From positions 1 to 50,789 of the forward strand of contig CAIYXV010000112.1 in assembly GCA_903930225.1 (NCBI GenBank): a DNA stretch of 50,789 bases, in the 5' to 3' direction. The stretch comes from an uncultured bacterium (GTDB taxonomy: Bacteria; Margulisbacteria; WOR-1; XYC2-FULL-46-14; WPAF01). The translations under genes and the position numbers were made by a program. The notes below the pieces were generated by a model. The model was not told the DNA's origin. It worked only from the letters and a program-made list of their open reading frames with translations, and searched no databases. Positions 23,049-50,789 of the stretch are shown here, in pieces. Positions within the stretch are counted from its first letter, which is position 1. Every line of letters begins with the position of its first letter.

Positions 23049-24079
23049 AACGCGCCGCAAAAATTACGCTGATCGTTTCGACCCTGCTGCTGGTGCTTAT
23101 GTTTTTTATGGCCGTTTCGGTCTTTCTGCAGGCCGGCGCCAATAACGGTCCGGTAACGATTGATATCCCAAAAGGTGCGTCCGCCAATCAGGCCGCCGCC
23201 CTGTTGCGGCAGGAAGGGATAATAAAAAGGACCATCGATTTTAAATTTGCGAGCCGGATATTATTCTTAACCGATAAGATCAAGGCCGGGCGGTACCGCT
23301 TCCCTGCTCATCCGTCTCTTTTTAGCGTACTGCTTGACCTTAAAAATGCCAGGACGATTGTTGAAGAGCCGTTGAAAGTCACTTTTCCGGAAGGGACCTC
23401 GATCTACCGGATGGGTTTGATCCTGGAAAAAGCGGGAGCTGTTTGTTCCGAGGAAATACGTTCGTTGGTCGATTCCTCTTTTGTGGAGAAGCTAAAAGGG
23501 GAATTCCATTTTCTTGATGGGGTAAAAAGCCGTTCTCTCGAAGGGTATCTTTTTCCGGATACTTATATGTTTGACCGTAACATTTCCGCCGAGGCGCTGG
23601 CCAGATTGATGCTTAGAAGGTTTTCAGATGTGGTACTGCCTTACTGGAATGACAATAAATACGCGGCGCGGTATGATCTTCATCAGATCGTAACGCTCGC
23701 TTCGATAATAGAGAAAGAAGCCAGGCGGCCCGAAGAGCGGCCGGTCATCTCATCCGTCTTTTACAACCGGCTAGAGATCCAAATGCCCCTAGCCGCCGAT
23801 CCGACGGTAAAATACGCGCTGGAGCGGCCGAGCAAGACCGTATTCTTTGATCAATTGAAAGTTAATTCTCCTTATAACACGTATAAGAACCGGGGTTTGC
23901 CTCCGGGGCCCATCAGTAATCCGGGGCTTGATTCCATCAAGGCGGCGATCTATCCGGCCAAGACCGATTATCTGTTCTTTGTGGCGCAGACGGATGGATC
24001 GCACATTTTCTCGGCGACCATGGCTCAGCATGAGAACGCCCGGGTCAGAGCCAAAAGATCTAAGAAAACCAGCCGCTGA
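23045..24079 (+). CDS. mltG: Endolytic transglycosylase
   Basis: LEGYLFPDTY, LASIIEKE, SPYNTY and GLPPGPISNPG. Confidence 0.96.
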   Translation: MKRAAKITLIVSTLLLVLMFFMAVSVFLQAGANNGPVTIDIPKGASANQAAALLRQEGIIKRTIDFKFASRILFLTDKIKAGRYRFPAHPSLFSVLLDLKNARTIVEEPLKVTFPEGTSIYRMGLILEKAGAVCSEEIRSLVDSSFVEKLKGEFHFLDGVKSRSLEGYLFPDTYMFDRNISAEALARLMLRRFSDVVLPYWNDNKYAARYDLHQIVTLASIIEKEARRPEERPVISSVFYNRLEIQMPLAADPTVKYALERPSKTVFFDQLKVNSPYNTYKNRGLPPGPISNPGLDSIKAAIYPAKTDYLFFVAQTDGSHIFSATMAQHENARVRAKRSKKTSR

Positions 24080-24953
24080 TCGTATCCCAGACATCTCCGG
24101 CGGCATCCGCTATGTCATTTGCGGCCGATTCCGCGGTGTAGAACGCATCTTCCAAACCGTCAATTATATCAAGATAAGTTTTAAACGTGTCCGACATCCG
24201 GTCGGACGGAAGATAAGCTTTAAGCTGTGATTCATTGAATGAACCTTTGGGAGCCATGGCCATTATATATCTGTGACCGCTCGGCACCAGGTTGTTGTCC
24301 CAGAACTTGCTTTGGAAATCAGCCGCGGTCCAGCACTGGGTGGTCGAATAGTTCGGGTTATTGAAATAGATATGGGTTATTTTCCCGGAATCGTCCTTTT
24401 TATATCCGGTGACCACCATCCAGTGTCCCCGGGAAGCATTGCTTATATAATCGGAAAGCGAAGAATTGCTGCCGCCGCCGTTTATCCCCAGCACCATGGC
24501 GGGAATGCCTTTATCTATCAGCGCGGCCAGGTCATTTAACGTGCCGTTGTTTATCTGCCTGACCGTCAGGTTTTTAGCTTCCGCTTTTTCTTTGAGCGCT
24601 TCGGGTCCGTGGCCGACCGTGCTTGATCCGAACATGGTATGCTGATCGACGTTGATGCCGTAATATTTTTCTAGCATCGCGAGAGAGGTCGGACCGCATT
24701 CGTTGTGGCCCTGGATCAGGTTGGTAACGGAGATCTTTTTATCGACCGCCAGGGAAACCGGCGTGATCTTTGGCAGTTGAGCGTTGATGATCGGGAGCGT
24801 GATCGGGGCCAGCTTTTGCTGTACCACCGCCGCCATTGATGAAAGAAATGACGGGCCCGAATAGGATGGACTGACGGTCGCCGGTTTTACCTGGGTTTCG
24901 ATCTTGGAAAGTGCGGACGACGCGATACTGCTGAAAGTCCTAAAATTATCCAT
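24060..24953 (-). CDS. C39-like cysteine peptidase with a Ser/Thr/Pro-rich N-terminal extension
   Basis: QGHNECGPTSLAM (Q, Cys), GHWMVVTGY (His) and YFNNP; AGGAG Shine-Dalgarno upstream; no Sec signal peptide. Confidence 0.8.
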   Translation of the reverse strand: MDNFRTFSSIASSALSKIETQVKPATVSPSYSGPSFLSSMAAVVQQKLAPITLPIINAQLPKITPVSLAVDKKISVTNLIQGHNECGPTSLAMLEKYYGINVDQHTMFGSSTVGHGPEALKEKAEAKNLTVRQINNGTLNDLAALIDKGIPAMVLGINGGGSNSSLSDYISNASRGHWMVVTGYKKDDSGKITHIYFNNPNYSTTQCWTAADFQSKFWDNNLVPSGHRYIMAMAPKGSFNESQLKAYLPSDRMSDTFKTYLDIIDGLEDAFYTAESAANDIADAAGDVWDTISGWFS

Positions 24954-32368: not shown

Positions 32369-32408
32369 AAGCGGGGTCCCGATCGATCGGGACCCCGCTT
32401 ATTTGTTT
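32369..32408 (+). terminator. Intrinsic terminator built on a perfect 32-bp palindrome
   Basis: AAGCGGGGTCCCGATC-GATCGGGACCCCGCTT followed by ATTTGTTT, just after the VWA stop. Confidence 0.75.
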
Positions 32409-32423
32409 GCGGGGAGAGAAGCA

Positions 32424-32586: not shown

Positions 32587-32614
32587 ATTTAGTATATTCG
32601 CGGGTTAGGGGTCT

Positions 32615-32643
32615 TTGACGCTCTTGAACTTTTGTGTTAAAAT
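32615..32643 (+). promoter_or_regulatory. Sigma70-type promoter for glyA-ftsEX-surA
   Basis: TTGACG-N17-TAAAAT with TG extension. Confidence 0.6.
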
Positions 32644-32681
32644 ATAAACATATTTATTTTATAATGTAAGGAGAAGATCCG

Positions 32682-35502: not shown

Positions 35503-35506
35503 TAAT

Positions 35507-36880: not shown

Positions 36881-38261
36881 CTTTTTGGCCTACCTCAAGC
36901 AGCTGTTCCACCCGGTCAAACGATGCTCCTTCAGCGTAGATCCGGAGCAGGGGTTCGGTCCCGGAAAGTCGGAACAATATCCATGAGGAATCTTCGAAAT
37001 TCAATTTGATCCCGTCAAGCGTTTCGATATTTGTGATCTTGCTCCCGGCAAACGATCCCATTTTATTGAGCTCTTTCATTTTGGGGAGGGCGGTTTCCCG
37101 CTCCACGTGCAGGTCGATCCGGTCGTAATAATAATGGCCGAGCTCATCCATAATGCCGTCGAGGAGCTGTTTTAAGGTCTTTTTTTCGTAGGCCATCAGC
37201 TCCAGCAGGAGCAGGGCGCACAAGCTTCCGTCGCGCTCGGGAATATTGCCCAGCACTCCGATCCCTCCGCTTTCTTCCCCGCCGATCAGCACTTTTTCGT
37301 TGATCATTTTATCGGCGATGTGCTTGAAGCCGATCGGCACCTCATCGATCGGCAGTCCGTATTTTTTCGCCTGTTTTTCGACCAGCCGGGAAATATTGAA
37401 GGTCTTGACCACTTTCCCGCTCATTTTACGGTTCTCGACCAGATGCTTCAATATCAATGAAAAAGCATAATGTGAGGTTATGAATGTCCCGGTCGGATCG
37501 ACCGCGCCGATCCGGTCCGCGTCGCCGTCGATCGCGATCCCGACCGATAGCTCCGGCATGCTTTTCATATATGACATGAGCTCTTCAAGGTTGGGGAGGA
37601 TCGGCTCCGGGTTCACCCCGCCGAACAGGGGATCCCGATTGCCGTTGATCTCTTCAAGATCGATCAATTCCTTTAAATATCCGGATCCGCTGCCGTGCAT
37701 TGGGTCCAGCACCGCGTTTATACCGGCTTTTTTTATCTTTTCAAGATCAACAAACGAAGCGATGTGCTTTAGGTATTCGGGTTTAGGGTCAAATACTTCG
37801 ATTTTAACCGCGAATTTATTCGCAGGTTGAGGAACGTGACCGGAAGCCGAGAATAAATTCTCGCTTAAAATTTTCTCAACCGCCTTGGTCACCTCCGGTC
37901 GGGACGATCCGCCGAAATTCTCTTTTATCTTGAAACCGTTCCATTCCGGCGGGTTATGGCTGGCCGTGATCATGATGCCAGCGCCCAAACCGTGCGATTT
38001 GACAAAATAAGAAAGAGCGGGCGAGGGGAGCGATATTTTTGATAAATATGTCTTGATCCCGGCGGCGGCGCATACTTCGGCCGCGCAGGCGGCGAAATCC
38101 TCGGATTGAAAACGATTATCAAACCCGACCGCAACTCCGTCCTTGGCCAGGCCGCTTTTTTTCAGGTATAAAATGAAGGCGGCGGTGACCAGCCGAATAT
38201 TGTTAAAAGTAAAATCATCCGCGATCCTGGCCCTCCAGCCGTCTGTTCCGAACTTTATCAT
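36867..38261 (-). CDS. Phosphoglucomutase/phosphomannomutase family protein
   Basis: FGTDGWR, TASHNP, DGDADR, GEESGG and RLSGTEP. Confidence 0.95.
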   Translation of the reverse strand: MIKFGTDGWRARIADDFTFNNIRLVTAAFILYLKKSGLAKDGVAVGFDNRFQSEDFAACAAEVCAAAGIKTYLSKISLPSPALSYFVKSHGLGAGIMITASHNPPEWNGFKIKENFGGSSRPEVTKAVEKILSENLFSASGHVPQPANKFAVKIEVFDPKPEYLKHIASFVDLEKIKKAGINAVLDPMHGSGSGYLKELIDLEEINGNRDPLFGGVNPEPILPNLEELMSYMKSMPELSVGIAIDGDADRIGAVDPTGTFITSHYAFSLILKHLVENRKMSGKVVKTFNISRLVEKQAKKYGLPIDEVPIGFKHIADKMINEKVLIGGEESGGIGVLGNIPERDGSLCALLLLELMAYEKKTLKQLLDGIMDELGHYYYDRIDLHVERETALPKMKELNKMGSFAGSKITNIETLDGIKLNFEDSSWILFRLSGTEPLLRIYAEGASFDRVEQLLEVGQKAILS

Positions 38262-40282
38262 TGCGACGGGCTCCCTTCATCGGTTTTATATATATCCTCT
38301 GCATTTTCGTCGGGATTATTGGGCTCTACTTTTGGATGAATATAACATTGCGAGATCGGCACGTCATTCTCGAAGAATTGAGCGGCAACTACCCGGTTCG
38401 CGGGGCAATAGCTGTTTGCCAGAAGCCCGGAGCTCAAGCAGATCCTCACCGTTACCAGCCCCTGAGGCGGCGGGAAGTCGAGCGGCGGATCGTTCGCGGT
38501 GGCCTGGGTCATGAAATCCTTGAAGATCCTGGGACAGATCGCAACTTCCGCGATCCCTTTCATGTGATGATTGTCATCGTTGCCCACCCAGACCCCGGTA
38601 ACCAGCTGGGGCGTGTAACCGATGATCCAGGCGTCCTTGAAATCTTCCGTTGTTCCGGTCTTGGCCGCGGCGGGACGGTTCAACCGTCCCATGTATCCGG
38701 TCCCCCTGGCCAGAACCCCCTTCATCATGTCCACCATGATCGCGGCCACGTTCTCTTCGAGCACGCGCTCGCCTTTAGGCTCATATTGATAGATCACCGC
38801 TCCGTCCCGATTGACGATCTTGGTAATGGCGGTCGGTTCCACTTTAACGCCGTTGTTGGCGAACACGCCGTAAGCGGATACCATCTCGATCATCGATACA
38901 TCGGAAACGCCCAGCGTGAGTGCCAACCCTGATTCCAGGTTGCTGGTTATACCCAGCCTTCTGGCCATCGAGATCGCGGAATCGATTCCTACTTTATTAA
39001 GCAGTTCAATTGCCGGAAGATTAAGGGAATGTTCCAGCGCGTAACGCATGGTCACGTTGCCCCGCCACTTGCGGTCAAAATCCTTCGGTTCCCATTTGCC
39101 GAAGGGATTCCACTTATTGGGGAATACGTTGTAAGTGGTCGGTTTGTCCGCCAGCACGGTCCCGGGAGATATGCCCTGTTCGATCGCGGCGGCGTACACA
39201 AAAGGCTTGAACGACGATCCCGGTTGGCGCTTCATCTGTATCGCGCGGTTGAACTGGCTTTTAACGAAATCGGCTCCGCCGACCATAGCTTTGATGAACC
39301 CGGTCCGCGGGTCTATCGCAAGCAGGGCCGCCTGCGAGAAGTCGTATTTTTTGCCTTCCTCATTGACGTATTTTTTTATGGTATCCTCTGCGGCGGCCTG
39401 GGCGTTTAAATCCAGCGTAGTGTAGACCCTCATCCCGCCCTTGTTGACGGCTTCCTCCCCGAATTTTTTTATCAGCTCTCCCCAGACATAGGACACAAAA
39501 TAGGGCGCGGATTGACCATACCTTTTAAGATTTTCAGGATGCAGTACGATCTGCTCGGCATAGGCCTTTCTGGCGTCGTCGAGCGAGACCAGGCTTTGTT
39601 TCACCATTTTTATCAGCACGATCTTTTGCCGGGACTTAGCCAGCTTGAAATTGCGATAGGGCGAATAGATCTCGGGCCCTTCGATAATACCCATGAGCAT
39701 TGAGGCTTCCCCGAGCGTGAGCTCGTTGGCGTGTTTTCCGAAATAGGCGTCGGACGCGGCCTCCACGCCGTAGGCATTGTGACCGAGATAGATCTGGTTA
39801 AGGTAATATTCGAGGATCTCGTCTTTTGTGAAGCGCCTTTCTATTTGAATCGCCAGCAGTACTTCGGCCAGCTTCCGGAAAAGCGTTTTTTGCCTGCTAA
39901 GGAACAGGTTCCTGGCCAGCTGTTGGGTGATGGTGGAGCCGCCTTCTACGATCCGTCCATACATGAGGTTCCGGCCGGTGGCCCTTAGTATTCCCAAGAC
40001 ATCAATGCCGTGATGGTTGTAAAACCTCTCGTCCTCGACCGCCACCAACGCTTTTTGGAGGTAGGGGCTGATCCGCGATAAAGGCACGACCCGCCGGTTC
40101 TCTTCCTCGTGGAACCGGGCGATGATCTTTCCGTCCTGGGTCAATAGCACCGACGCTTCCGAAGGGGTGTAGTAATTTAGGTCATCCACATTGGGAAGCG
40201 ATAACAGTATCTGGAGCAATATCCCGGAAACCGCGGCCAGAAGGACGAACACGACGATGATAAAAGTCCTGGAAAGCTTCAT
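38258..40282 (-). CDS. Class A penicillin-binding protein (PBP1A family)
   Basis: EDERFYNHHG, GGSTITQQL, SSFK (SxxK), SLN and KTGT. Confidence 0.95.
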   Translation of the reverse strand: MKLSRTFIIVVFVLLAAVSGILLQILLSLPNVDDLNYYTPSEASVLLTQDGKIIARFHEEENRRVVPLSRISPYLQKALVAVEDERFYNHHGIDVLGILRATGRNLMYGRIVEGGSTITQQLARNLFLSRQKTLFRKLAEVLLAIQIERRFTKDEILEYYLNQIYLGHNAYGVEAASDAYFGKHANELTLGEASMLMGIIEGPEIYSPYRNFKLAKSRQKIVLIKMVKQSLVSLDDARKAYAEQIVLHPENLKRYGQSAPYFVSYVWGELIKKFGEEAVNKGGMRVYTTLDLNAQAAAEDTIKKYVNEEGKKYDFSQAALLAIDPRTGFIKAMVGGADFVKSQFNRAIQMKRQPGSSFKPFVYAAAIEQGISPGTVLADKPTTYNVFPNKWNPFGKWEPKDFDRKWRGNVTMRYALEHSLNLPAIELLNKVGIDSAISMARRLGITSNLESGLALTLGVSDVSMIEMVSAYGVFANNGVKVEPTAITKIVNRDGAVIYQYEPKGERVLEENVAAIMVDMMKGVLARGTGYMGRLNRPAAAKTGTTEDFKDAWIIGYTPQLVTGVWVGNDDNHHMKGIAEVAICPRIFKDFMTQATANDPPLDFPPPQGLVTVRICLSSGLLANSYCPANRVVAAQFFENDVPISQCYIHPKVEPNNPDENAEDIYKTDEGSPSQ

Positions 40283-40287
40283 AAATA

Positions 40288-40299
40288 TATAATATTATA
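40288..40299. promoter_or_regulatory. Back-to-back divergent -10 boxes (TATAAT/ATTATA)
   Basis: 12-bp palindrome TATAATATTATA in the 23-bp gap between the divergent PBP1A and plsC genes. Confidence 0.45.
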
Positions 40300-40305
40300 C
40301 CATAT

Positions 40306-41007
40306 ATGAGGGCTTGTTTTGACCTGGCGCGATCCGCAGTTCTATGGCTTATCTTCTTCTTTGGCATTTTCACGATCGCTCTTTTGTATCCGATCATCCG
40401 GTATCTTTCTCCTGGTAACGAAGAGATCTTTCAGTATATGATGGGCTTCTGGGCCAGGATGTGCCTTCGCTGTTCACTGACCCGGGTCCGATTGATCGGT
40501 GCCGCGAATATTCCCGCGGCCGGCGGAATGGTCATTGCCGCCAATCATAGCAGTTTCATCGATAACCTCGTTTTGTTGGGTGAGCTTCCTCTTCGGTTTA
40601 AGATCGTGGCTTCCCGCGCTGGATTTTCATTGCCTTTTATGGGAAGGGTGTATCGCGGGGCGGGATACATACCCACCGGGCTGCGTATGGACCTGTCGGA
40701 ACAGATGAAGCTCTACCGCGAACTGAAAAATAAGCGTAATGTACTGATATACAGCAAATTACCGAAAAATAGTAAGCTCGGGGAATTTACCGAAGCCATG
40801 ATCGCGGCGGCCAGGGAAACGCATTGTCCGATCGTCCCGATCTCAATTAAGCATGCCCGCGAGGTCTTGCCGATGAAAAAATTCATATTAAAAAAAGGCG
40901 AGATCGTGGTCAGGATCGGGGAGCCGATCTATGTGCCGGACCTTAAGATTTTACAAGATAAGATCAGGGAATTGTATCAGGCGGAGGAGGGGGCGTTCCG
41001 GGCTTGA
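40306..41007 (+). CDS. Lysophospholipid acyltransferase (PlsC family), divergent
   Basis: NHSSFID (HX4D) and PIVPISI motifs present; FPEG motif degenerate. Confidence 0.8.
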   Translation: MRACFDLARSAVLWLIFFFGIFTIALLYPIIRYLSPGNEEIFQYMMGFWARMCLRCSLTRVRLIGAANIPAAGGMVIAANHSSFIDNLVLLGELPLRFKIVASRAGFSLPFMGRVYRGAGYIPTGLRMDLSEQMKLYRELKNKRNVLIYSKLPKNSKLGEFTEAMIAAARETHCPIVPISIKHAREVLPMKKFILKKGEIVVRIGEPIYVPDLKILQDKIRELYQAEEGAFRA

Positions 41008-41377
41008 CCCGGAATCCTGGGGTGGAGGGGTTTGTCATTCCAGGCTTGAACTGGAATCCAGGGGAGGGGCTTTCGATCCTTCTGGATTCCAGCGTTCGCT
41101 GGAATGACGGATGACAGTTTGAAGGAGGGGTTTGTCATTCCAGATTTAATCTGGAATCCAGGGGCGGGGTTTTCGATCCTTCTGGATCCCAGCGTTCGCT
41201 GGAATGACGGATGGCAGTTTGAAGGAGGGGTTTCAGTCATTCCAGGCTTGACCTGGTGTCCAGGGGTGGATGGGTTTGTCATTCCAGGCTTGACCTGGAA
41301 TCCAGGGGGGGGGCTTTCGATCCTTCTGGATTCCAGCTTTCGCTGGAATGACAGGCTCCAGCGTTCGCCGGGATGAC
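40993..41377. repeat. BIME-like array of GTCATTCC...GGAATCCA palindromic repeats
   Basis: Forward units at 40993, 41034, 41134, 41236 and 41278; inverted units at 41082, 41182, 41326 and about 41356; 100-bp periodicity. Confidence 0.9.
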
Positions 41378-41398
41378 GGATGAAGATTTGAAACCTGG

Positions 41399-41428
41399 AT
41401 GCAAGTTTTTTGTCCCGTCTTCCGATAT
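41399..41428 (+). promoter_or_regulatory. Sigma-28-like promoter copy 1
   Basis: ATGCAAG-N15-TCCGATAT. Confidence 0.7.
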
Positions 41429-41446
41429 CTTATGCGGAGGACTAAG

Positions 41447-41635
41447 GTGGCAATAGATCTTTCTTCCGTAAACGTAAATTTGGATAAGATAAACGGTGAT
41501 ATCAACAGTATTTTATCTGAAATAAAACCGATGTTCAATTCGGAGCAATGCCATGTAAATATTCCCGGAAATGTGGTAAACTCGGTTGATCTTGATAGCG
41601 CATGCAAGATTTTTGGCCTTAAGTCCGATAAATAA
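41447..41635 (+). CDS. Small hypothetical protein (62 aa)
   Basis: GGAGG Shine-Dalgarno before GTG 41447, downstream of promoter copy 1; begins MAIDLSSVNVNLDK. Confidence 0.55.
   Translation: MAIDLSSVNVNLDKINGDINSILSEIKPMFNSEQCHVNIPGNVVNSVDLDSACKIFGLKSDK
41602..41631 (+). promoter_or_regulatory. Sigma-28-like promoter copy 2
   Basis: ATGCAAG-N15-TCCGATAA. Confidence 0.72.
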
Positions 41636-41653
41636 AATGGAGACATATATATA

Positions 41654-42049
41654 ATGGTTAATTTTGAAGCGGCAAATGGATTTGGCAGAAATAGAGCGCA
41701 GTGGAAACTGCAGGGAGGCTTGGGCAATAAAGCTCAGGCTTTCAGCGAATCCACGCAAAAAGCTACACGTGCCTTAACCCAGGACCAGTTCATCCACGGC
41801 GCCCACAACACGGAGACCCGCGATTCCACTTCGGGAAAATACGAGCGTTTGGAAAAGGGATATACGAGCGTGCTCGAGGAACTGTTCACCTGGATCGCCA
41901 ACCTTTTTGGCAAGGGCACCCCCAAGACCGCTCCCCGCGATCCGGGGACGGGAGACGCGATACCTACCCCGGTTGGAAAGGCCCCCGGGGAGATAGCGCC
42001 CGGAAACCCCGGAGCGTCGGACATTGCCCCTAGAGGAGTGACAGCATGA
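41654..42049 (+). CDS. Hypothetical protein (131 aa) with an amphipathic helix and Pro/Gly-rich tail
   Basis: GGAG Shine-Dalgarno; VLEELFTWIANLFG helix; ATGA-coupled to the next gene. Confidence 0.7.
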   Translation: MVNFEAANGFGRNRAQWKLQGGLGNKAQAFSESTQKATRALTQDQFIHGAHNTETRDSTSGKYERLEKGYTSVLEELFTWIANLFGKGTPKTAPRDPGTGDAIPTPVGKAPGEIAPGNPGASDIAPRGVTA

Positions 42050-42255
42050 GCATAGATTGGTTCTCTTTTTTTATTGGAACCGGCGCGGGCGTGTTTTTAA
42101 TGTCCATTACCGGGCTGATATCCTCTTACATAAGATTAAAGAAAGCAAGGGCACGGGTTGATCTTATGGAAGCAAAAATCAAAAAGTTCCAGGATATCCT
42201 TGAAAAGAAAAAAGAAGAATTGATCGGACGGATCGAAGAGGAGAAAAAATCGTGA
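42046..42255 (+). CDS. Small membrane protein (single TM plus coiled coil)
   Basis: AGGAG Shine-Dalgarno; hydrophobic aa 5-29 followed by a K/E-rich helix; overlaps both neighbours. Confidence 0.7.
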   Translation: MSIDWFSFFIGTGAGVFLMSITGLISSYIRLKKARARVDLMEAKIKKFQDILEKKKEELIGRIEEEKKS

Positions 42256-43409
42256 TCGCATTGGCAGGCGACGTCCTTGGGCTAAACCCGGCAGGCGGAG
42301 CCCCCAAGCCGGTTGGCAAAAAGGCGATCGCACCACAACCCCCGGCGATGCCCATAGATCAAGTGACCGTGAGCGACCAAGCCCGTAAGGAGATTGCTCC
42401 GGGAGTTACCGAAACCGGTAAAATACCGGTAGCGGGGAAAAAGGAGCCGGACGGCGTCGATCGTTTATTGGGCCTTATGTCCGATCTTTTTGGCACAACC
42501 CTTTATGACAAAGGCGGCGTTGGAGGATGGATCCGTGAACAGCGAGCGAAAAATCCCGATGGGAAGATCGATTTTAGGGATATCGGTTTTAGAAGGGCTC
42601 TAGCCAGGGATCTTTATGGAGAAATGGCGACCAAATGGAGCGATAGTGAAGTAAAGGATCACATAACCGATGAGGCGGTCGACTACTTCTTTGGAAATCA
42701 GGATGGCAAGATCGATTCGAACGATCAAATGACCACCGCCCAGTTGATAAAACGGCTTGAATTCACTCTGCCCAGGTTCAAGGCGCAGATTGCCGCGGGC
42801 GGCGAGAACGCTTTCACATACCTTGGTTCATACCTTAGTTCTCACGAAATAATTATAGTCGATTACACCAGGGCGGCCGAATACTTTAAAGGCGTTGATT
42901 TTTCGGCTTTAGGTAGAGCAAACGACCGCATATTTAATAAATGCCTCGACGGCGTAATGGAAACCTACAAGTTCCTTTCTGTCAAAGGAATGATAAGCGA
43001 AGATGAATTTAAGGCCGCGGCTGAAGCATACGGCAAGTTCAAAAAAGGCGAAGGCGACGAAAAAACACTTCCTCCCCGGTTCAAGGAATTGCTCTTCGCT
43101 TCGTACTGGGGATTGTTCAAAGCGGAGTGCGGCGCCAGAGGCGTAAAACTGCCAAAGGACGCTTTACAAGATAAAATAAAAGGTCCGAAACTGGTCATGG
43201 ACCTTATGCAGGGAGCGTTCCAGAACTTTATCGAAGGCCACAGCGACGTGAATCCGGAAAATATCACCCATGACCTTCCGGACAGCCTTGACGAAACCGG
43301 CATTCAAAAAGCCAAAACCGCAAGAGATAATCAAGTCGGCGCCCGCAACGCAGCCAAAAAGACCGATGAGGTTCCTGCTCCGGATGGCAATGTTAAAGTC
43401 GTCCAATAA
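42252..43409 (+). CDS. Hypothetical helical protein (385 aa) with a disordered N-terminus and two EF-hand-like loops
   Basis: GAGGAG Shine-Dalgarno and GTGA overlap; DQVTVSDQAR; NPDGKIDFRD and NQDGKIDSND. Confidence 0.8.
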   Translation: MIALAGDVLGLNPAGGAPKPVGKKAIAPQPPAMPIDQVTVSDQARKEIAPGVTETGKIPVAGKKEPDGVDRLLGLMSDLFGTTLYDKGGVGGWIREQRAKNPDGKIDFRDIGFRRALARDLYGEMATKWSDSEVKDHITDEAVDYFFGNQDGKIDSNDQMTTAQLIKRLEFTLPRFKAQIAAGGENAFTYLGSYLSSHEIIIVDYTRAAEYFKGVDFSALGRANDRIFNKCLDGVMETYKFLSVKGMISEDEFKAAAEAYGKFKKGEGDEKTLPPRFKELLFASYWGLFKAECGARGVKLPKDALQDKIKGPKLVMDLMQGAFQNFIEGHSDVNPENITHDLPDSLDETGIQKAKTARDNQVGARNAAKKTDEVPAPDGNVKVVQ

Positions 43410-43426
43410 AAGAATACCCCTTTTTA

Positions 43427-43456
43427 ATGCAAGTCCCATGGACTATAATCCGATAA
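43427..43456 (+). promoter_or_regulatory. Sigma-28-like promoter copy 3
   Basis: ATGCAAG-N15-TCCGATAA, 9 nt before ATG 43466. Confidence 0.72.
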
Positions 43457-43465
43457 TATAGTGTA

Positions 43466-46400
43466 ATGGTCAATGGCGTAAACCCTAATCCAAATATCGA
43501 TAAACTCAATCAGAAAAATGATGTCTATCAGGGCAGCATCAATCCTTCTTTTATCCCGTCAAACGAACCCGAGCCGGGCGAGACCAAATCCACAACTGAT
43601 TCGACTTTGATCTCGTCCACCACACCCGGGGCCGTCAATTCGGCCATGTCTTCGGCTATATATAATGCCGGAGGGGTTCAGAAACCGGAAGACATAGGTT
43701 ACATCAAGAACACTCCGACGCCTCCCAGCCCGACACCTCCCAGCCCGCCTCCTCCGCCTCCCGGCGATGCCGGAGGAGTTGGCGGATCGACCCCGACGGG
43801 CGGCACGAGCGGTGATACAAGCACCGGTATGGATGTGGCGGGGGACGTCGACCAGGGAATGGACGATTTCTGGAACAGCGTCTTAAATGACCCCCTTTAT
43901 GACACGGATATTAACGGGTTTGAAAGCCTCAACGGAGATAAACTGGAAGCACTTTACCGCCAGCTTCTCTCCCTTATGAATACCAGGCTTTTTATGATGA
44001 TGTTCCTCGAGCAGAGGGGCGAGATCCGCGATATGCTGTTTAAAGCCTTCATCAGCGCCGATCTTTCGGATGTCTCCAAAAAAACCTCGCTGGTCGAGCT
44101 GACCGGCAAATCGAACGCTAAACTGGCAAAATTTTTCCAGAAGGGTATCGCCATCCTGATGACGAACATCAAAGCCCACAATGACGCGGTTTTAGCTGAA
44201 AAACTTAAAGAAGCCGATGACGCTAAAGGCAGCGGCTGGGATAACTACTGGTCCAGCAACGGCGACCAGGAAGACGCGCTCCAGATGGCGGAAGATGCCA
44301 AAAAAGAATACAAGGATGCCATGGACAGGAGCATCGCTTCGCTAAACCGCGTTTTTGGCGGGAGCTTTGTCGGACTAACTCCGGAAACTAAAGCGAAAGG
44401 TGACGAGGTCATGAACGACCTCAAGAATTCGGAGAGCCATCTTACTTACGATGCGGACGGTTATGTGGATACCGGGGCTTTCAAGCAGTACATTGTTGAC
44501 TTGAGAAATGAGTTCATAGGTCTTTTGAACGTGAACCGGCTGGTAGTTTCATCCGCCCGGCAGAAAGAATCGATGCAGAAGGCGATGTTCGAAGCGATCA
44601 CCGGAAAAAGCGGCTTGAGCGAACGCCTGGGCGGCGCGGAAGAAGGGGTTGAGTCGGAGAACGCCCACCAGGCGGTGCTTTTTGACCAGACCGCCAGCTC
44701 GATACTCGAAGTGCAAAAGGTAAAGAACGACATCAAGTTCATCCAGAAACAGATAGAGAAGATCGATGATTCGATGTGGGCCACCGTGCTGGGGAACATT
44801 TTTGAAGCGGTGGCGATCGTCGCCACCATTGTGGTTGCGGTGGCGGTATCGATCGTTACCTGGGGATCGGCTACGGCGGGGGCGGTCGCGGGGGCGGTCG
44901 CGCTGGTCGCCCTGATAGTTGCAGTTTGCGCGGGGGTGTTGGCGGCGACGTTCAAGTACGTCGGGGCAGAGATCGGCGATGCGGTGGATGACGCTTATGA
45001 CCCATCTGTTGATACTTATAACCCCAAAATGCGGGAAAAAGATCGCGTTAAACACAGTATGCTTGACCAGGCGGATGAACTTGAGTACGAAGAGCAAATG
45101 CTGGTAAACGGCGTCGGGATGGGGCAGATCGATACTTTAAGCGATGATTACCTGGCGGTTAACAATGGACAGATCGCTAACCTTACCCGCCAGCTGAATG
45201 GCCTTCAAAATGCCATGCGCGTGATCGCGAAAATGATGAAACAGCAGGCGGAGATCCGCCGGATGATCCAGCGGGCGCTGACCGGACTTTCGGGAGGGAG
45301 CGCCTCCGGAAATCTCACCAGCGCGGCGCTGGAAGATGTCTTAAAACAGATGGGAATGCAGTTCCAGGCCCTGGTATCCAACCTAAGTGAATACAAAGAC
45401 GCCCAGAACAACGAGATCCAGCAGGCCAAGGCCATGGAAGCAGCGCGGATCAACTTTGCCGTAAGCATGGTAACGGCGGTCGTGGCCGCGATCATCGGGG
45501 CGGTGATCCCGGGCGTGGGGGGGCTGATGGGAGCGCTGATCGGGTTTTCGGTCGGTATGACGCTTGGTTCGGCGATCGCAGGTATGATCACTGCCTCATT
45601 GTACGACACCAGAAACATCACTTACGCGCCGAACGTCAACGATTGGCGGCCGATCGGCAGCGAGGGGAAAGGGCGGACCGGTTCGGTGCTGGCCAATCTC
45701 GATACCGAAGCTTTTAATGTATATGATGAGCTCTTTTCGGTGGGGACCTGCGACGCGGGCGACGGCAACATCGGCCTGAACACCAACAAAATACAGGCAA
45801 TGCAGAAGCGGCTGGAGAATATCTTTATTACCATCGGCAATATCGCCTCTACCATTGAAGCCAAAAGCAAAATGCTCAAGGCGATCTGGCAGTCGCTAGG
45901 GGTTGTGACCGACGAGACCGAATCGATCAGCGACATGGTCCGGGGTAATTTTGAGACCCAGATGAAGGTTTTTCACAGCGCGGTCAGCGCGCTGTCAGAG
46001 AAGGTGGAGGTGGCCAACCGGGCCAACGCCGCTCAGCAGCAATACGACAATGCCACCACCAAATTGATCGTTACGGTAGCGCTGCTTGCCGTGTCGGCGG
46101 TAATCGGCGGGGCGACGGGATTGACCTCTGTCTTTAACCTCTGTCTTTCCGTCACCAACCTAACGGTATCGGCGATTGATATGATTAATGCATGGATGAG
46201 AGCGCGCAACGATACCGGCGAACTTGGGACCATGGCCGCGCAGACCACGCCTGAAGACGCGAAGTCGGTAAAACAAAAAATGTCCGCGGAGCAGCAGCTT
46301 CTGGAGAAGGCGGAAGAGATCGAGGCGGGGATCTCGGTCAATTCGGGCATGATCGTTCAGGGCGGCGGCGGCAACTATGGGATCAACAGCGGAATGTTCG

Positions 46401-49231
46401 AGGTCCAAAACGCGGCGCTTGAAAAAATGAACCGCATCAAAGAACTTATTGGGGACATAGTTAACCAGGGCAAAGACGTTAAAAGCCGGCTGGCGAGGGT
46501 ACTTGGCGGAGTAAGGCCGAATTCTCCAAACGCCATGGATACAGCGGCCTATATTTCAAGCACCATCGCGCGCGCCATGCTCCAGACCCAGATGCAGGCG
46601 GTGCAGCAGTTGGTAGGGCGTATGAACCAGATAAACCAGGCCGAAAAAAACGCCATCCTGCAGTCGGTAAGCACCGGCATTTCGGCGGTACAGGTTGCGC
46701 TTTCGGTGGTAAACTTCGCCAAGACCAACGGGGCAATGAAAGAATTCAAGGATATGCAGAAGGATATACAGAGCAAGCCGGAAGCGAAAGACAAATGGGA
46801 CCAGAAGGAGATCAACCGCAGGACCGAAAATTACAAGGAAGCGCTAAAGACCAGCCAGAATATCGGCTACGTGAATTTGGCTTTGTCCGTGGTCCAGACC
46901 CTTATCGATTCATTACTTATTGCTTCCGACCACTGGAGCGCCGGGCCGGACAAAAATGAAAAAGCGGTCAGCGAAAGCAAGAACAAGGAAAATGTCGCAA
47001 AAAGCCGGCAGGCGATATCTTCCGCGCAGGGAGCGTCTGTTTCATCTTACGGAGCCCAGCTCGATTCGATGGAAGCGGAGTCCACCACTCTCGCTCTTGA
47101 TTCCGGCAATGCAGACCTTGACATGCAGTTCCAGGAGATATTAAGGAACGCGGACACTCAGCTGATGAATACCTCCGAAAGCCATTTAAAGAGCCTTCTC
47201 GGCCAGGCGACCAGCCTGATGGACGGCGTGAGCAAAAAGGACTCGGCCAAGCTGGCGGTCGAATACGGCAAGCAGAGGCTGGATATTCAACAGAAAGAAG
47301 ATGACTTCAGGAAAAAAGCGGCCATGGCTGCCGCCGCCGATGTGCGCTATGCTCAGGCAAAACAGGCGCTTGAAACATACCGCCCGGAACAACAGCCCGA
47401 TCGTGCAAATCAACCGATGTCGGGCAGGCTTGAAAAGCTTTTGGCGGATGTCGAGAATGCGAGGAGAGAAGTTGATGCGGCGAAGGCAGATGTGGTAAAA
47501 AGCTATAAAGATTGGAAAGAAAGCGCGGGCAAACTGTTAACGATCGTGACCGCTCAAAATGCACGGTTGGGCAAAAAGACCGATCTGCCGCCGGAGCTTC
47601 AAGCCATGGCTGATGATCCGGTTTCCGATGAGAAAATATTTGAATCAGCCAAAAAGGTCAGCGAAGGGCAGCCGCTCGATCTTACTTTTGAGACCACGAT
47701 CGAAGGGAAAAAAGTAGACATCACCCTGACCATGGCGGCGGACGGGACCCCGAAGATCAATTATACAAACGATCAGGGAAAACAGGTTTCAATGACCCTT
47801 CCCGAATATGCAGCTATCAGGGAAACGGAGCTGAAAAACAAGGCTCAAAAAGCCGATGGTGAGGCGACCATCAGGGAGAACGAGTCAACCCTGGCGGACC
47901 GGGATGCGTCCAAAGCTGAACGAGAAGCCAAAGAAACAAAACTCCCAAGCGCGGCGGCGGACGCAAAGGAAAAACGCAGGATCGCCACAGAAAAGAAAAC
48001 TATTGCCACGGAGGCACGGGAAGCCCACAAAGCCGCCGCCGCAAAGAAATATGATCTTATGCAGGATGAGGTCATCAAGCGGATGGTCGGACAAAGTGTC
48101 GAATCTTATGATAAGACCTCCCGGGCGATGGCAAGGTTCATGGAAGATGTGACATCTATGTCCACCTCGGTTTCACAAATGTCTTCCGAAGTGTCTATTG
48201 AAGCGGACAAAGCGATGGCCGCCATGAACAAGATGGACGAGGAAGTAAAGGAAAAACGGGGGAACCGGGAGCTTAAGGAGCTGTCGGCAGAAGAGCTCCA
48301 GTCGCATTATGATACCGTTTATAAGGAAGTGTTCCTGCCGACCAGGGCGGAACTCCAGCAGATACTCAAGGATAAAAGCCAGGTCAATTCGGAGCTCCGG
48401 CAGCTTAAGGCCGAACAGAAAACGGAAGATGACCTGATCAAAGCCGGTGAATTGAAACCGGAAGATGTTAAAGAAAAGGCCCAGGTTCGCCGCAACCGGA
48501 TCGCAGAGCTCGAGGTAAAGATGGGCGATATTTCATCGAGAGAAGGAGCCTGCCGCGCCCGGATCAAATCGTTCAACCAGTACATCGGCCAGATTAATAA
48601 TGAATTCCGTGCCAAGACGGTCACGACCGATAATCCAAAAGGGAAGGACCTGAAACCGGCTGCTTCTCCTGACGCTACTACGGCCGTGACCAAGCCCAAG
48701 GCCGAAGGAAAACCGACGGCTGGACCCGAGATCGCTCCGAGCGCCGGGAAACCTGTATCTAAACCTTTATCAGACCCGGTCGTGCAGGCCGTGCTTCAAG
48801 GAAAAGTGTTTATTGAGAACGGCAAAGTGAACGTTAACGGCAGCGGGAAAATGGCAGTTGAGGATGTGGTAACCAAATTAAAGGCGGCGCTCGAAGACCC
48901 GAGGATATCAAAAGATCAGAAAGCGATAATCCAGGCCGAGATCAATCGCCTGTCTACTGAGGCGGCGGTCCCGGCCACAACCCCGGACAAGGCGGAAAAG
49001 ACCTCCACCGCTTCATCTGCGGCCACGGCAGAATCCGGTGAAGTCAAGAAAGAAGAATTGAAAAGTGGTAATATATGGAAGTCTGAGTTCGCGGAGGATC
49101 TCAGACTTGTGCTGGCTAAGGTCGACGATGCGAGCGGCAGGCTCAAAGGCTATGCCCAGACGATCGAGCATCTGACCATTCGGGTTGATAAAATTAAATC
49201 GTTCGCTCCTAAGGAATCTCTAACCGCATGA
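43466..49231 (+). CDS. Giant hypothetical protein (1921 aa) with tandem helical repeats and hydrophobic hairpins; putative multi-translocator/pore-forming protein
   Basis: Long ORF; no signal peptide; Pro-rich N-terminus; five ~200-aa repeats; hydrophobic segments at about aa 438-498, 663-712 and 867-908; coiled-coil C-terminal half. ORF is solid, product call is inference. Confidence 0.7.
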   Translation: MVNGVNPNPNIDKLNQKNDVYQGSINPSFIPSNEPEPGETKSTTDSTLISSTTPGAVNSAMSSAIYNAGGVQKPEDIGYIKNTPTPPSPTPPSPPPPPPGDAGGVGGSTPTGGTSGDTSTGMDVAGDVDQGMDDFWNSVLNDPLYDTDINGFESLNGDKLEALYRQLLSLMNTRLFMMMFLEQRGEIRDMLFKAFISADLSDVSKKTSLVELTGKSNAKLAKFFQKGIAILMTNIKAHNDAVLAEKLKEADDAKGSGWDNYWSSNGDQEDALQMAEDAKKEYKDAMDRSIASLNRVFGGSFVGLTPETKAKGDEVMNDLKNSESHLTYDADGYVDTGAFKQYIVDLRNEFIGLLNVNRLVVSSARQKESMQKAMFEAITGKSGLSERLGGAEEGVESENAHQAVLFDQTASSILEVQKVKNDIKFIQKQIEKIDDSMWATVLGNIFEAVAIVATIVVAVAVSIVTWGSATAGAVAGAVALVALIVAVCAGVLAATFKYVGAEIGDAVDDAYDPSVDTYNPKMREKDRVKHSMLDQADELEYEEQMLVNGVGMGQIDTLSDDYLAVNNGQIANLTRQLNGLQNAMRVIAKMMKQQAEIRRMIQRALTGLSGGSASGNLTSAALEDVLKQMGMQFQALVSNLSEYKDAQNNEIQQAKAMEAARINFAVSMVTAVVAAIIGAVIPGVGGLMGALIGFSVGMTLGSAIAGMITASLYDTRNITYAPNVNDWRPIGSEGKGRTGSVLANLDTEAFNVYDELFSVGTCDAGDGNIGLNTNKIQAMQKRLENIFITIGNIASTIEAKSKMLKAIWQSLGVVTDETESISDMVRGNFETQMKVFHSAVSALSEKVEVANRANAAQQQYDNATTKLIVTVALLAVSAVIGGATGLTSVFNLCLSVTNLTVSAIDMINAWMRARNDTGELGTMAAQTTPEDAKSVKQKMSAEQQLLEKAEEIEAGISVNSGMIVQGGGGNYGINSGMFEVQNAALEKMNRIKELIGDIVNQGKDVKSRLARVLGGVRPNSPNAMDTAAYISSTIARAMLQTQMQAVQQLVGRMNQINQAEKNAILQSVSTGISAVQVALSVVNFAKTNGAMKEFKDMQKDIQSKPEAKDKWDQKEINRRTENYKEALKTSQNIGYVNLALSVVQTLIDSLLIASDHWSAGPDKNEKAVSESKNKENVAKSRQAISSAQGASVSSYGAQLDSMEAESTTLALDSGNADLDMQFQEILRNADTQLMNTSESHLKSLLGQATSLMDGVSKKDSAKLAVEYGKQRLDIQQKEDDFRKKAAMAAAADVRYAQAKQALETYRPEQQPDRANQPMSGRLEKLLADVENARREVDAAKADVVKSYKDWKESAGKLLTIVTAQNARLGKKTDLPPELQAMADDPVSDEKIFESAKKVSEGQPLDLTFETTIEGKKVDITLTMAADGTPKINYTNDQGKQVSMTLPEYAAIRETELKNKAQKADGEATIRENESTLADRDASKAEREAKETKLPSAAADAKEKRRIATEKKTIATEAREAHKAAAAKKYDLMQDEVIKRMVGQSVESYDKTSRAMARFMEDVTSMSTSVSQMSSEVSIEADKAMAAMNKMDEEVKEKRGNRELKELSAEELQSHYDTVYKEVFLPTRAELQQILKDKSQVNSELRQLKAEQKTEDDLIKAGELKPEDVKEKAQVRRNRIAELEVKMGDISSREGACRARIKSFNQYIGQINNEFRAKTVTTDNPKGKDLKPAASPDATTAVTKPKAEGKPTAGPEIAPSAGKPVSKPLSDPVVQAVLQGKVFIENGKVNVNGSGKMAVEDVVTKLKAALEDPRISKDQKAIIQAEINRLSTEAAVPATTPDKAEKTSTASSAATAESGEVKKEELKSGNIWKSEFAEDLRLVLAKVDDASGRLKGYAQTIEHLTIRVDKIKSFAPKESLTA

Positions 49232-49851
49232 CGATGCGTAAAATCGAAGAAGCCAGGGCCCGGGCGGAAGCATTAAAAAAAGAGCATGACGCGCTGGTCT
49301 CCGAACTGGCCAAGAAGAAGGCCGAGATCGACGGAATTGCCGCCGGCCATGATAAATACAAGGATAACCCCGCGATGCTTTCCCAGCTTGAAGAGGTCAT
49401 GAAAAAGAGGATGGAAGAGCTTTCCGCCCTGATCAGGAATATTGATGAGCTTGGCGATAAGATCAAAGCCGTGAACGAAGAGCTGAACCGCTTGTTTGAC
49501 GAGATAAAAACTCAGATAAAGCGTGTGCCTGCTAAGGAGTCCCCGATTGTAAAGATCGCTAAAACCCCATTGGCCGAAAAAATGCTGAATCAGGCGATGG
49601 CGGTAAAGCCCCTGGTAAAGCAAGACATCCCAGTTGCCAAACCCGCTGCCGCTAAACCAACCCCGGCTGTAATTGAGAATAAAAAGGAAGCCCCGGCGCC
49701 TGTAAAGGAAGCGGAAAAAAAGATCAAAACTGAGGTCAAAAAGACAGCTCCTTCAGGGGACCTTTATGATAAAGCCGCCCGCGAAGCCAAAGCGCAGGAA
49801 GAATACTTGAAGAAAATGTCCGGTTCCCACAAGGATTACGGCGCAGCTTAA
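49228..49851 (+). CDS. Coiled-coil hypothetical protein (207 aa)
   Basis: ATGA-coupled to the giant gene; heptads over aa 1-98; K/P/A-rich tail. Confidence 0.75.
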   Translation: MTMRKIEEARARAEALKKEHDALVSELAKKKAEIDGIAAGHDKYKDNPAMLSQLEEVMKKRMEELSALIRNIDELGDKIKAVNEELNRLFDEIKTQIKRVPAKESPIVKIAKTPLAEKMLNQAMAVKPLVKQDIPVAKPAAAKPTPAVIENKKEAPAPVKEAEKKIKTEVKKTAPSGDLYDKAAREAKAQEEYLKKMSGSHKDYGAA

Positions 49852-49875
49852 TCCCGCCCCCTGGCCTTAAAATCC

Positions 49876-49905
49876 ATGCAAGTTTTTACGCTCCCCCCCC
49901 GATTA
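49876..49905 (+). promoter_or_regulatory. Sigma-28-like promoter copy 4
   Basis: ATGCAAG-N15-CCCGATTA. Confidence 0.65.
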
Positions 49906-49920
49906 TATATGTGAACGCAT

Positions 49921-50142
49921 ATGCAGATATCAAATTCAATAAATAACAATATGAGCTCGGTGAGGGAGAACGTATTGGATGCCCTTAAGAGCGGGAATGT
50001 GTCAGACGGCCTTAAAGCGACCGATCTTTTTTTAAATTCTAATAGTGGTACTTGCGTTTCCATTTCCAAGACTGATGATGTTGCCACTTTGGCTCATCAG
50101 CTCCTGGGAGGAAAAATGACCCAGGTTAACACGGTAGTCTGA
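49921..50142 (+). CDS. Small hypothetical protein (73 aa)
   Basis: Directly after promoter copy 4; N/S-rich N-terminus. Confidence 0.55.
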   Translation: MQISNSINNNMSSVRENVLDALKSGNVSDGLKATDLFLNSNSGTCVSISKTDDVATLAHQLLGGKMTQVNTVV

Positions 50143-50155
50143 AAGGAGAAATGAA

Positions 50156-50371
50156 ATGACAGAAACTACAGGCGCCGCCGGACAGATAAAACCAGGTTTT
50201 CAGTCTGAAACCGGACGAGCGATGATCAACGAGCTCAAGACCATCCTTGGCGGAGATAAGGGCGTCAATACCAATACCGATCTTAATGCCAAGTCGGAAG
50301 AGATCGTTAAGGCCAATACTTCGATCGCCGGCGGAAATTCGGCCTTGGGACAAAGAGGAGTAGTAGTCTAA
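50156..50371 (+). CDS. Small hypothetical protein (71 aa)
   Basis: AAGGAG Shine-Dalgarno; TAATG overlap with the next gene. Confidence 0.65.
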   Translation: MTETTGAAGQIKPGFQSETGRAMINELKTILGGDKGVNTNTDLNAKSEEIVKANTSIAGGNSALGQRGVVV

Positions 50372-50652
50372 TGGAAATTCAGGGTATTTCAGGTAAACCC
50401 GCAATTGCGGCAAAACCGGAAACAAACAACCAGGCGACGCGCGCCGATGGGGCCAGCTTTTTGGGCTCGATCACGGAAGCGGTAAAAGCGGGAAAGATCG
50501 TTATGCCAGGCGGGACCAATATGGAACAGCTCGATTTTAAGAAGACAAAAGTTAACGGGGAAACGGGTATCAAGGCCGAAGAAACGGAAGAAGAAAAGAT
50601 CAAAGGGTTTCTGACCAGGATAAAAAATATTCTGGATAAATCAAAAAAATAA
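50371..50652 (+). CDS. Small hypothetical protein (93 aa)
   Basis: GAGGAG Shine-Dalgarno; translationally coupled; contains ASFLGSITEAVK. Confidence 0.7.
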   Translation: MEIQGISGKPAIAAKPETNNQATRADGASFLGSITEAVKAGKIVMPGGTNMEQLDFKKTKVNGETGIKAEETEEEKIKGFLTRIKNILDKSKK

Positions 50653-50667
50653 AGGAGGTGATACGAG

Positions 50668-50789
50668 ATGATAAATATGGAAGTAGCACTTGACTGCGCG
50701 AAGATGATCGACGACCGTTTGAACCTGCTTGAGCATGTGAACACCTTGACGGCTGATGGAGATGGTTCGACCGATATCAGCACGTCGGA
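50668..50789 (+). CDS. Hypothetical protein, 3'-truncated by the window edge
   Basis: Strong AAGGAGGTGA Shine-Dalgarno; open frame MINMEVALDCAKMIDDRLNLLEHVNTLTADGDGSTDISTS to the end. Confidence 0.6.
   Translation, partial: MINMEVALDCAKMIDDRLNLLEHVNTLTADGDGSTDISTS

Follow-up and report, generated by a model that had tools for sequence, protein, structure and literature searches.

A candidate sigma-28-type promoter of divergent form before orphan genes and a flagellar basal-body operon in an uncultured WOR-1 bacterium

Introduction

The 50,789-nucleotide contig CAIYXV010000112.1 (assembly GCA_903930225.1) of an uncultured bacterium of the lineage Margulisbacteria; WOR-1, which we call the window throughout, carries several copies of a bipartite element, ATGCAAG-N15-YCCGATWW, shortly before orphan open reading frames (ORFs). 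The locus raises the question of whether this element is a promoter, which sigma factor would read it, and which genes it would serve. An earlier note, made from the letters of the window, had described four copies and proposed a dedicated regulon under a sigma factor of the FliA/WhiG family. We find that this proposal is supported by the fixed geometry of the motif, its intergenic position, the purine at the predicted start site, its conservation in the class, the presence of two suitable sigma genes and the canonical sigma-28 promoters found before flagellin genes of flagellated relatives in the phylum. Judging from sequence, the window's five sites (the four described and one more) and about 17 others elsewhere in the genome are very probably promoters of one group-3 FliA/WhiG-like sigma factor of the Saganbacteria/WOR-1 lineage. 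The putative regulon exceeds the four sites first described, with about 22 sites in the genome, including one before a basal-body operon in which the gene for one of the two sigmas lies.

Results

The motif recurs with fixed geometry and points at genes

A search of the window (contig C112) with ATGCAAG-N15-YCCGATWW gave exactly four matches, all on the + strand, and these are the four copies with a 15-nt spacer that had been described, beginning at 41399, 41602, 43427 and 49876 (P1 to P4, Table 1). In 100 dinucleotide-preserving shuffles of the window the mean count was 0.01 and none of the shuffles reached four. The heptamer ATGCAAG is seen four times, compared to 6.0 expected, and all four copies lie within the composite motif. 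The copies had been placed 9–22 nt before start codons, and indeed the distances from the ends of P1, P2, P3 and P4 are 18 nt to GTG 41447 (which is preceded by GGAGG), 22 nt to ATG 41654, 9 nt to ATG 43466 and 15 nt to ATG 49921. For the weaker copy P5 the distance is 40 nt, to ATG 24953, where a C39-like peptidase gene begins. No competing sigma-70-like match was found on the + strand directly before the four motif-headed ORFs. The claim that housekeeping genes in the window use TTGACA/TATAAT instead was given a light check: TTGACG-17-TAAAAT, carrying a TG extension, and TTAAAA-17-TATAAT stand shortly before the SHMT gene (32682), and the overall excess in 31000–50789 is weak (27 sigma-70-like matches, compared to 17.5 ± 5.1 in shuffles).

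The genome, a 1.69-Mb assembly of 137 contigs with 51.5% G+C and an estimated completeness of 99%, contains ATGCAAG 84 times and ATGCAAG-N15-NCCGAT at 10 strict sites. A weight matrix built from these 10 sites, together with a relaxed pattern, yielded about 12 further sites in the same register, for a total of about 22; the weaker sites have A for G in the first box, or TA, TG or CA before CGAT. The consensus is ATGCAAG-TTTTT-(C-rich, 10 nt)-N-CCGAT-WW. The spacer is 15 nt in all 10 strict sites and the register is unchanged in the weaker ones; the spacer sequence is variable and the flanks are unconserved, such that only the length of the spacer is fixed. CCGAT is invariant in the strict sites and CGAT is found in all but one of the ∼22 (the exception, C19:5346, reads CGAA), while the two bases that follow CCGAT are A or T except at two sites, which end in AG. 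The base before CCGAT, which corresponds to position -15 below, is C, T or A in the strict sites and never G. Most sites fall outside genes: 18 of 22 lie outside ORFs of at least 150 codons, which together take up 89.7% of the genome, and a co-oriented ORF starts 3–114 nt downstream of every site. The four sites within ORFs include P1 and P2, both under an opposite-strand ORF that we judged spurious.

The motif is conserved in related genomes. The strict pattern was found in 39 of 41 relatives, in which a reversed control pattern matched once, and in a 121-genome sample of the phylum it was found in 45 of the 48 genomes of the same class and in 25 of the 73 genomes of other classes, compared to four matches of the reversed control in all 121 genomes. 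The motif is kept before the ortholog of the giant gene that follows P3 in a genome of the same genus (G001, 74% protein identity) and before its homolog in a genome of another family (G015, 21% identity over 1056 residues); in G001 the P2 motif is likewise kept before an orthologous 133-aa gene. Among 16 related loci scanned, the motif precedes the fliK-like gene in five, and it precedes flgF in one more.

Predicted start sites place a purine at +1

We predicted start sites with a geometry borrowed from the Pseudomonas aeruginosa sigma-28 open complex, in which NCCGATWW is set at -15 to -8 (PMC12784957). In the part of that paper that describes the fliC promoter, the -10 element is GCCGATAA at -15 to -8 and the -35 element is TCTAAAG at -36 to -30. 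With this geometry the predicted +1 is the eighth base after CCGATWW, and ATGCAAG falls at -37 to -31, 1 bp upstream of the canonical -35. This eighth base is a purine at 21 of the 22 sites in the genome by manual reading (G 7, A 2 and T 1 in the 10 strict sites) and at all 13 sites read in relatives, and the seven bases between CCGATWW and the predicted +1 are AT-rich.

The predicted +1 of P1 is G41436, so its mRNA would begin with GGAGG, and that of P2 is G41639, so its mRNA would begin with GGAGAC; with sites on contigs C3, C98 and C130, these make up the predicted mRNAs that open at a Shine-Dalgarno sequence. The predicted +1 of P3 falls at 43463–43465, and its mRNA would therefore be leaderless or nearly so; five predicted mRNAs are leaderless, with ATG at +1 to +4 (P3, one on C102, two on C118 and one on C1). 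P4 has its predicted +1 at G49913, which leaves an 8-nt leader without a Shine-Dalgarno sequence, and P5 has its predicted +1 at G24986.

The motif appears to be a derived sigma-28 promoter

The Escherichia coli sigma-28 consensus is TAAAGTTT-N11-GCCGATAA. The earlier note had held that the -10 element of the motif matches sigma-28 and that its -35 element is a variant; CCGATWW is indeed shared and TA is changed to GC in the -35, but the G at -15 of GCCGATAA is not conserved. The canonical form TAAA-N15-GCCGAT has 11 matches in the genome, apparently chance matches within coding sequence by manual reading. Flagellin genes occur in 14 of the 73 genomes of other classes in the phylum, with one atypical match in this class, and 6 of 17 flagellin loci from flagellated families of the phylum carry yTAAAG-N14-A(C/T)CGA(T/A)AA within 330 nt upstream. 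Given these sigma-28 promoters before flagellin in the same phylum, the window motif is best interpreted as a derivative of the phylum's sigma-28 promoter, and it would be a previously undescribed variant of that known class. Apart from this, the 5′ regions of the flagellin genes at loci L069, L073, L074, L082 and L086 have a conserved hairpin with GGA in its loop (gtttcacGGAtgaaac), just before the Shine-Dalgarno sequence. Such a hairpin before flagellin recalls translational control of the CsrA/FliW type.

Two FliA/WhiG-like sigma factors are candidate readers

The FliA-like sigma factors that the proposal implies are present: the genome has four genes of the sigma-70 family, which encode RpoD, one extracytoplasmic function (ECF) factor and two FliA/WhiG-like proteins, of 249 and 194 aa. 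Along its entire length the 249-aa protein aligns with TIGR02479 (FliA_WhiG; E 3.7e-41), with a score of 141.3 bits that is under the curated cut-off of 189.6 bits. The 194-aa protein, for which FliA_WhiG is likewise the best match (E 3.9e-24, 85.6 bits in two pieces), has regions 2 and 4 only. The 249-aa sigma is encoded on contig C43 in an operon with the order fliK-like, flhB_C-like, flgF, flgG, flgA, flgH, flgI, a small ORF, the sigma gene, flgB, flgC, fliE, fliF, fliG, fliH, fliI and fliJ. A weaker copy of the motif (C43:19187) lies 28 nt before the start of this operon, and one candidate reader therefore stands under its own promoter type. The 194-aa gene, by its coordinates, adjoins flhA in many relatives. 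An ortholog of the 249-aa protein was found in 36 of the 41 relatives and one of the 194-aa protein in 40 of the 41, and the 194-aa sigma was found in 113 of the 121 genomes of the phylum sample. The named records with the closest sigma orthologs are metagenome-assembled genomes of Candidatus Saganbacteria, candidate division WOR-1 and Candidatus Margulisiibacteriota, with one labelled Omnitrophota.

The phylum has three group-3-like sigma paralogs, namely the canonical FliA, the 249-aa-type paralog and a short sigma of about 200 aa. Flagellin-bearing genomes encode the canonical FliA, with the recognition helix ESRISQIH, in addition to the other two; the canonical FliA was seen only in the six flagellated genomes examined, and this class lacks it. 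We also considered presence and absence across genomes as a test of which protein is the reader, and rejected it as non-discriminating, since almost every genome of the class has both sigmas, and relatives of both extend across the phylum.

We aligned both sigmas to the P. aeruginosa sigma-28 chain 9wsm_F and took the contacts from the account of the open complex in PMC12784957, with a chain numbering equal to that of the paper plus 5 (checked on D66, Y76, I79, R80, R97 and R101). Among the contacts described there, D66 and Y76, which hold the flipped -11A, and R80 and D87, which touch -12G and -13C, are kept in both sigmas. R97, which reads the G:C pairs at -15/-14, is Tyr in the 249-aa protein and Val in the 194-aa protein; at Q228, the contact to the upstream half of the -35, both sigmas have Arg; and S224 is Pro in the 249-aa protein and retained in the 194-aa protein. 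Conserved residues would thus face the conserved CGAT, and replaced residues would face the changed -15 position and the TA-to-GC part of the -35, which we regard as a correlation only.

Alternatives to the promoter and to its reader

As an alternative to a promoter, the motif might be an operator site to which a regulatory protein binds, or it might mark the conserved terminus of a small mobile or repeat element. An element resembling a repetitive extragenic palindrome or miniature inverted-repeat transposable element (REP/MITE) does immediately precede three of the 22 sites (P1, C19:5346 and C127:9643), and the same palindromic element occurs at five more intergenic sites. Before P1 it forms an array with palindromes of the form GTCATTCCAG-N6-CTGGAAT ... 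CTGGATTCCAG-N6-CTGGAATGAC, which as RNA has a folding z-score of -5.8 compared to shuffles, and it may serve as an insulator or terminator. The other 19 sites, however, have no such element, and no Rfam family matched in the window. The two boxes of the motif are neither palindromes nor direct repeats, a spacer of constant length but free sequence separates them, the flanks are unconserved, and the second box is the sigma-28 -10 core; moreover, the motif is always oriented towards the gene, with a purine at the expected +1. We consider a non-promoter role very improbable.

Several observations do weigh against the sigma-28-type promoter. Compared to the sigma-28 -35 element TAAAG(TTT), the motif has ATGCAAG(TTTTT), with GC for TA and an extra conserved AT upstream. 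Its spacer is 15 nt rather than the canonical 14 nt (TAAAG to GCCGATAA), and it lacks the G at -15 of GCCGATAA, while the equivalent of R97, the residue that reads this position in the contacts given by PMC12784957, is replaced. Flagellin_N, FliD_C, FliS, FlgM and MotA were unfound in this genome estimated to be 99% complete, and the sequencing runs with this DNA are three DNA runs from one freshwater-sediment study, with no RNA run among them. No ortholog of the 249-aa sigma was found in 5 of the 41 motif-bearing relatives; in three of the four of these that we checked flgI lies at a contig end, in the fourth (G008) flgI itself was unfound, and G012 fell outside the check. Given these contig ends and the missing operon contig, the misses are probably an assembly effect. 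Finally, the recognition helix of the 249-aa protein varies in the class (SRPKVCR versus SKSKVNR) while the -35 box is constant, and the SKSKVNR helix is also found in flagellated families that have 0–2 strict motif matches per genome.

These last two points weaken the 249-aa protein as the reader of the motif, and we rate the two sigmas about equal in this respect. That the full-length 249-aa factor of the basal-body operon, with regions 2, 3 and 4, reads the motif is possible, at somewhat less than an even chance; in that case the motif before its own operon would create a positive feedback loop. Its full-length TIGR02479 match and its conserved -10-reading residues speak for it, as does the motif at the head of its operon both here and in 5–6 related loci. 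Furthermore, its ortholog group is 59–90% identical within the class and at most 39% identical outside it, which parallels the class-wide abundance of the strict motif. Its region 4.2 helix, however, is unlike that of canonical sigma-28 at nearly every base-facing position, varying in the class as ATGCAAG does not, and its closest relatives in flagellated families share SKSKVNR in genomes where strict sites are rare. The two-domain 194-aa sigma, nearly phylum-wide and often beside flhA, is to about the same degree a possible reader. Three families of the class share an identical region 4.2 sequence in this sigma, LSESQVSRICK, and it differs from the canonical ESR(I/V)SQ only by an R/Q swap and one residue, which suits a -35 that keeps AAG and changes two bases. 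It retains the -10 contact residues Y, I, R and D by manual reading, and its lack of region 3 fits the unconserved G at -15. On the other hand, this sigma is found throughout the phylum, whereas abundance of the strict motif is confined to this class; its match to the FliA_WhiG model is the weaker one; and its gene here lies behind a sigma-70-like TTGCGT-17-TAGAAT, with no motif nearby that points at it. An ORF of about 70 codons (G000 C1:558-772) follows that sigma-70-like promoter and overlaps the start of the short sigma gene (ATGA), and it may encode a partner or an anti-sigma protein.

Genes that follow the motif

Pfam searches of all nine genes of the motif-headed block gave only sub-threshold matches. 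The 1921-aa protein has a polar head of 440 residues, followed by hydrophobic hairpins and long helical charged stretches, with at least four internal hydrophobic segments (445–463, 474–492, 664–682 and 867–885). Its family comprises five proteins, including the query, in 5.8 billion clusters searched. It had no Pfam match to SseC or T3SSipB at E values up to 0.01; by language model it is nearest to translocator clusters of type III secretion systems (T3SS), with scores of 0.79–0.80 that are below the reliability level of the tool and serve as a lead only. The 385-aa protein (42252–43409) has a disordered N-terminus of 66 residues and an all-alpha domain with two DxDGKID loops, which look like EF-hand calcium sites. 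Relatives of this protein number two in the 5.8 billion clusters and 17 representatives in a 1.84-billion library, and no Pfam family matched the 17 aligned members (the query and 16 representatives). Its AlphaFold model (pLDDT 67.8, pTM 0.67) had no Foldseek match in PDB at E values up to 0.001, the best rows being EF-hand proteins at E 0.4–2. The language model places it near a cluster named 'Cj0814 family flagellar-dependent secreted protein', with a score of 0.89 that is likewise a lead only.

Elsewhere in the genome the putative regulon includes a 1319-aa protein with a protein kinase domain, a 1247-aa orphan and many small proteins. A hydrophobic segment is absent in 26 of 29 regulon proteins, and one has a signal-peptide-like N-terminus. 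In the first 25 residues the fraction of S, T, N, Q, G, A and P is 0.54 in the regulon proteins, compared to 0.37 in 1382 background ORFs (Mann-Whitney P 2e-7). This N-terminal composition, the scarcity of hydrophobic segments and the language-model leads fit flagellar export, although disordered orphan proteins would look alike. A paralogy search among the 29 proteins found one related pair, the 342-aa protein on C102 and the 262-aa protein on C118. Three small regulon proteins, of 73 aa (49921–50142), 71 aa (50156–50371) and 78 aa (G000 C118:40974-41210), end in VV or VVV.

A flagellum-like gene set with motor and filament genes unfound

On contigs C43, C93 and C8 the genome encodes FlhA, FlhB-like and FliOPQR-like proteins, FliH/I/J, FliF, FliE, FlgB/C/F/G, FlgA/H/I and FliMN_C, of which FlhB, FliOPQR and FliI were named by ORF order and sequence appearance and not by family scan. 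Between them these genes cover the export gate, the ATPase complex, the MS ring, the rod and the P and L rings. FliK-like proteins, a FlgD-like protein, a short FlgE/G-like protein and a FliM/N-type protein are also present. FliG is 176 aa long, with the N and M domains only, and fliH follows directly. FliG_C and MotA_ExbB had no matches in the genome; within the class, three of 48 genomes gave FliG_C matches, all of them located in ORFs of about 500 aa and none in an ORF of FliG size. Rod-family models retrieved no FlgK-type protein from the genome, and very divergent filament proteins are conceivable. Flagellin_N matched in 1 of the 48 genomes of the class, at locus L022 (G028:C4:60770-64132), in a 251-aa ORF (1408–2163) with a signal-peptide-like N-terminus. 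No sigma-28-like motif lies upstream of this atypical protein.

Table 1. Positions of the predicted promoters, the genes that follow them and the palindrome array in the window
Feature	Coordinates	Strand	Remarks
Predicted promoter P1	41399..41428	+	ATGCAAG at -37 to -31; 15-nt spacer T-rich, then C-rich; TCCGATAT at -15 to -8
Predicted promoter P2	41602..41631	+	within the 3′ end of the 62-codon ORF
Predicted promoter P3	43427..43456	+	for the giant 1921-aa gene
Predicted promoter P4	49876..49905	+	
Predicted promoter P5	24994..25023	-	weaker copy, absent from the earlier note; ATACAAG-N15-CACGATAA; 24.3 bits with the weight matrix, and in the regular-expression listing
62-aa orphan ORF	41447..41635	+	GTG start after GGAGG; no Pfam family
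Three orphan genes	41654..43409	+	131 aa; 69 aa with one transmembrane segment; 385 aa
Giant protein gene	43466..49231	+	1921 aa
Coiled-coil-like orphan gene	49228..49851	+	207 aa; overlaps the stop of the giant gene; only sub-threshold coiled-coil-type Pfam matches
Three small orphan genes	49921..50652	+	73, 71 and 93 aa; contig end at 50789
Peptidase_C39-like protein gene	24060..24953	-	297 aa; PF13529, E 2.7e-12; without signal peptide or N-terminal hydrophobic segment
REP/MITE-like nested palindrome array	40990..41395	.	about 400 bp; directly upstream of P1; distinct from the promoter

Discussion

We propose that domain 2 of the sigma factor would read the invariant C-G-A-T (-13 to -10), with the A at -11 flipped out as in canonical sigma-28, and that domain 4 would read ATGCAAG at -37 to -31 together with the T-tract, a derived version of (TC)TAAAG(TTT) placed 1 bp further upstream. 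Transcription would start at the purine 8 nt past CCGATWW, and the resulting mRNAs would be leaderless or would open at a Shine-Dalgarno sequence. The regulon would consist of fast-evolving, lineage-specific genes without Sec signals and of the operon fliK-like/flhB_C-like/flgFG/flgAHI/fliA/flgBC/fliEFGHIJ. If this is correct, ATGCAAG-N15-NCCGATWW with a start 8 nt downstream is a promoter code by which a regulon can be read from sequence in an uncultivated lineage. It would also document a drift of sigma-28 specificity within one phylum, with the canonical form before flagellin in the flagellated families and the derived form here, and with substitutions at sigma residues that the 2026 structure, in the contacts it describes, places at the changed bases.

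About 20 orphan transcription units, by carrying the motif, would count as the late output of an export apparatus of flagellar type, with no motor or filament genes detected. A bolder reading, which we hold to be unlikely, is that the Saganbacteria flagellum lost its filament and cap, the stator, the FliG torque domain, FliS and FlgM while retaining FliK, the rod, the rings and the export gate, that its sigma-28-type regulon was refilled with lineage-specific cargo, and that it became a machine for secretion or contact-dependent delivery. The cargo would then include a giant translocator-like hairpin protein, a protein with a eukaryote-type kinase domain, a C39-like peptidase of papain-like type and many small proteins with polar N-termini, and the conversion of a flagellum to an injectisome-like machine would be independent of the known one and still under FliA-type late-gene control. 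If the regulon proteins are exported, they bear on how flagella turn into secretion machines. In the literature on Margulisbacteria, Saganbacteria and Termititenax, supplementary files being outside the search, we found no paper that describes this promoter, or a flagellar apparatus without a motor, in the phylum.

Within the phylum, the closest comparison is to the flagellin promoters of the flagellated Margulisbacteria. They share the AAG...CCGA core with the window motif and, like it, have no G at -15, but they retain the TA before AAG and the 14-nt spacer, and they precede true flagellin genes. As in the sigma-28 class-3 system, a group-3 sigma is encoded amid flagellar genes here; classical sigma-28 targets are flagellin, flgM, motAB and che genes, in contrast to the orphan genes and the early basal-body operon found here. 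With the P. aeruginosa sigma-28 promoter, as it is described in the fliC part of PMC12784957, the motif has in common a bipartite structure with fixed spacer, CCGAT(A/T)(A/T) at -14 to -8, and an AAG followed by a T-tract in the -35.

Beyond the promoter itself, the putative export apparatus can be compared to two flagellar systems, and to the transition from flagellum to injectisome as presented by Abby and Rocha (PMC3459982). Several Cia, Fed and FspA genes of Campylobacter jejuni are sigma-28-dependent. In that organism, according to the portions of PMC2764114 and PMC5223770 that treat these proteins, non-flagellar Cia, Fed and FspA proteins are exported through the flagellar apparatus. The likeness lies in non-flagellar proteins with N-terminal export signals, in their co-regulation with late genes and in the flagellar type III exit, to which the lead for the 385-aa protein corresponds here; the C. 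jejuni flagellum is complete and rotating, however, and export of the proteins here is hypothetical. Buchnera aphidicola has filament-less flagellar basal bodies (PMC8109811, in the part concerned with these structures), and in both cases the export gate, rod and rings are kept in a small genome while filament and motor genes are unfound. Unlike Buchnera as portrayed there, this is a free-living sediment lineage according to its run records, and its apparatus is class-wide, with two FliA-like sigmas and a conserved promoter regulon.

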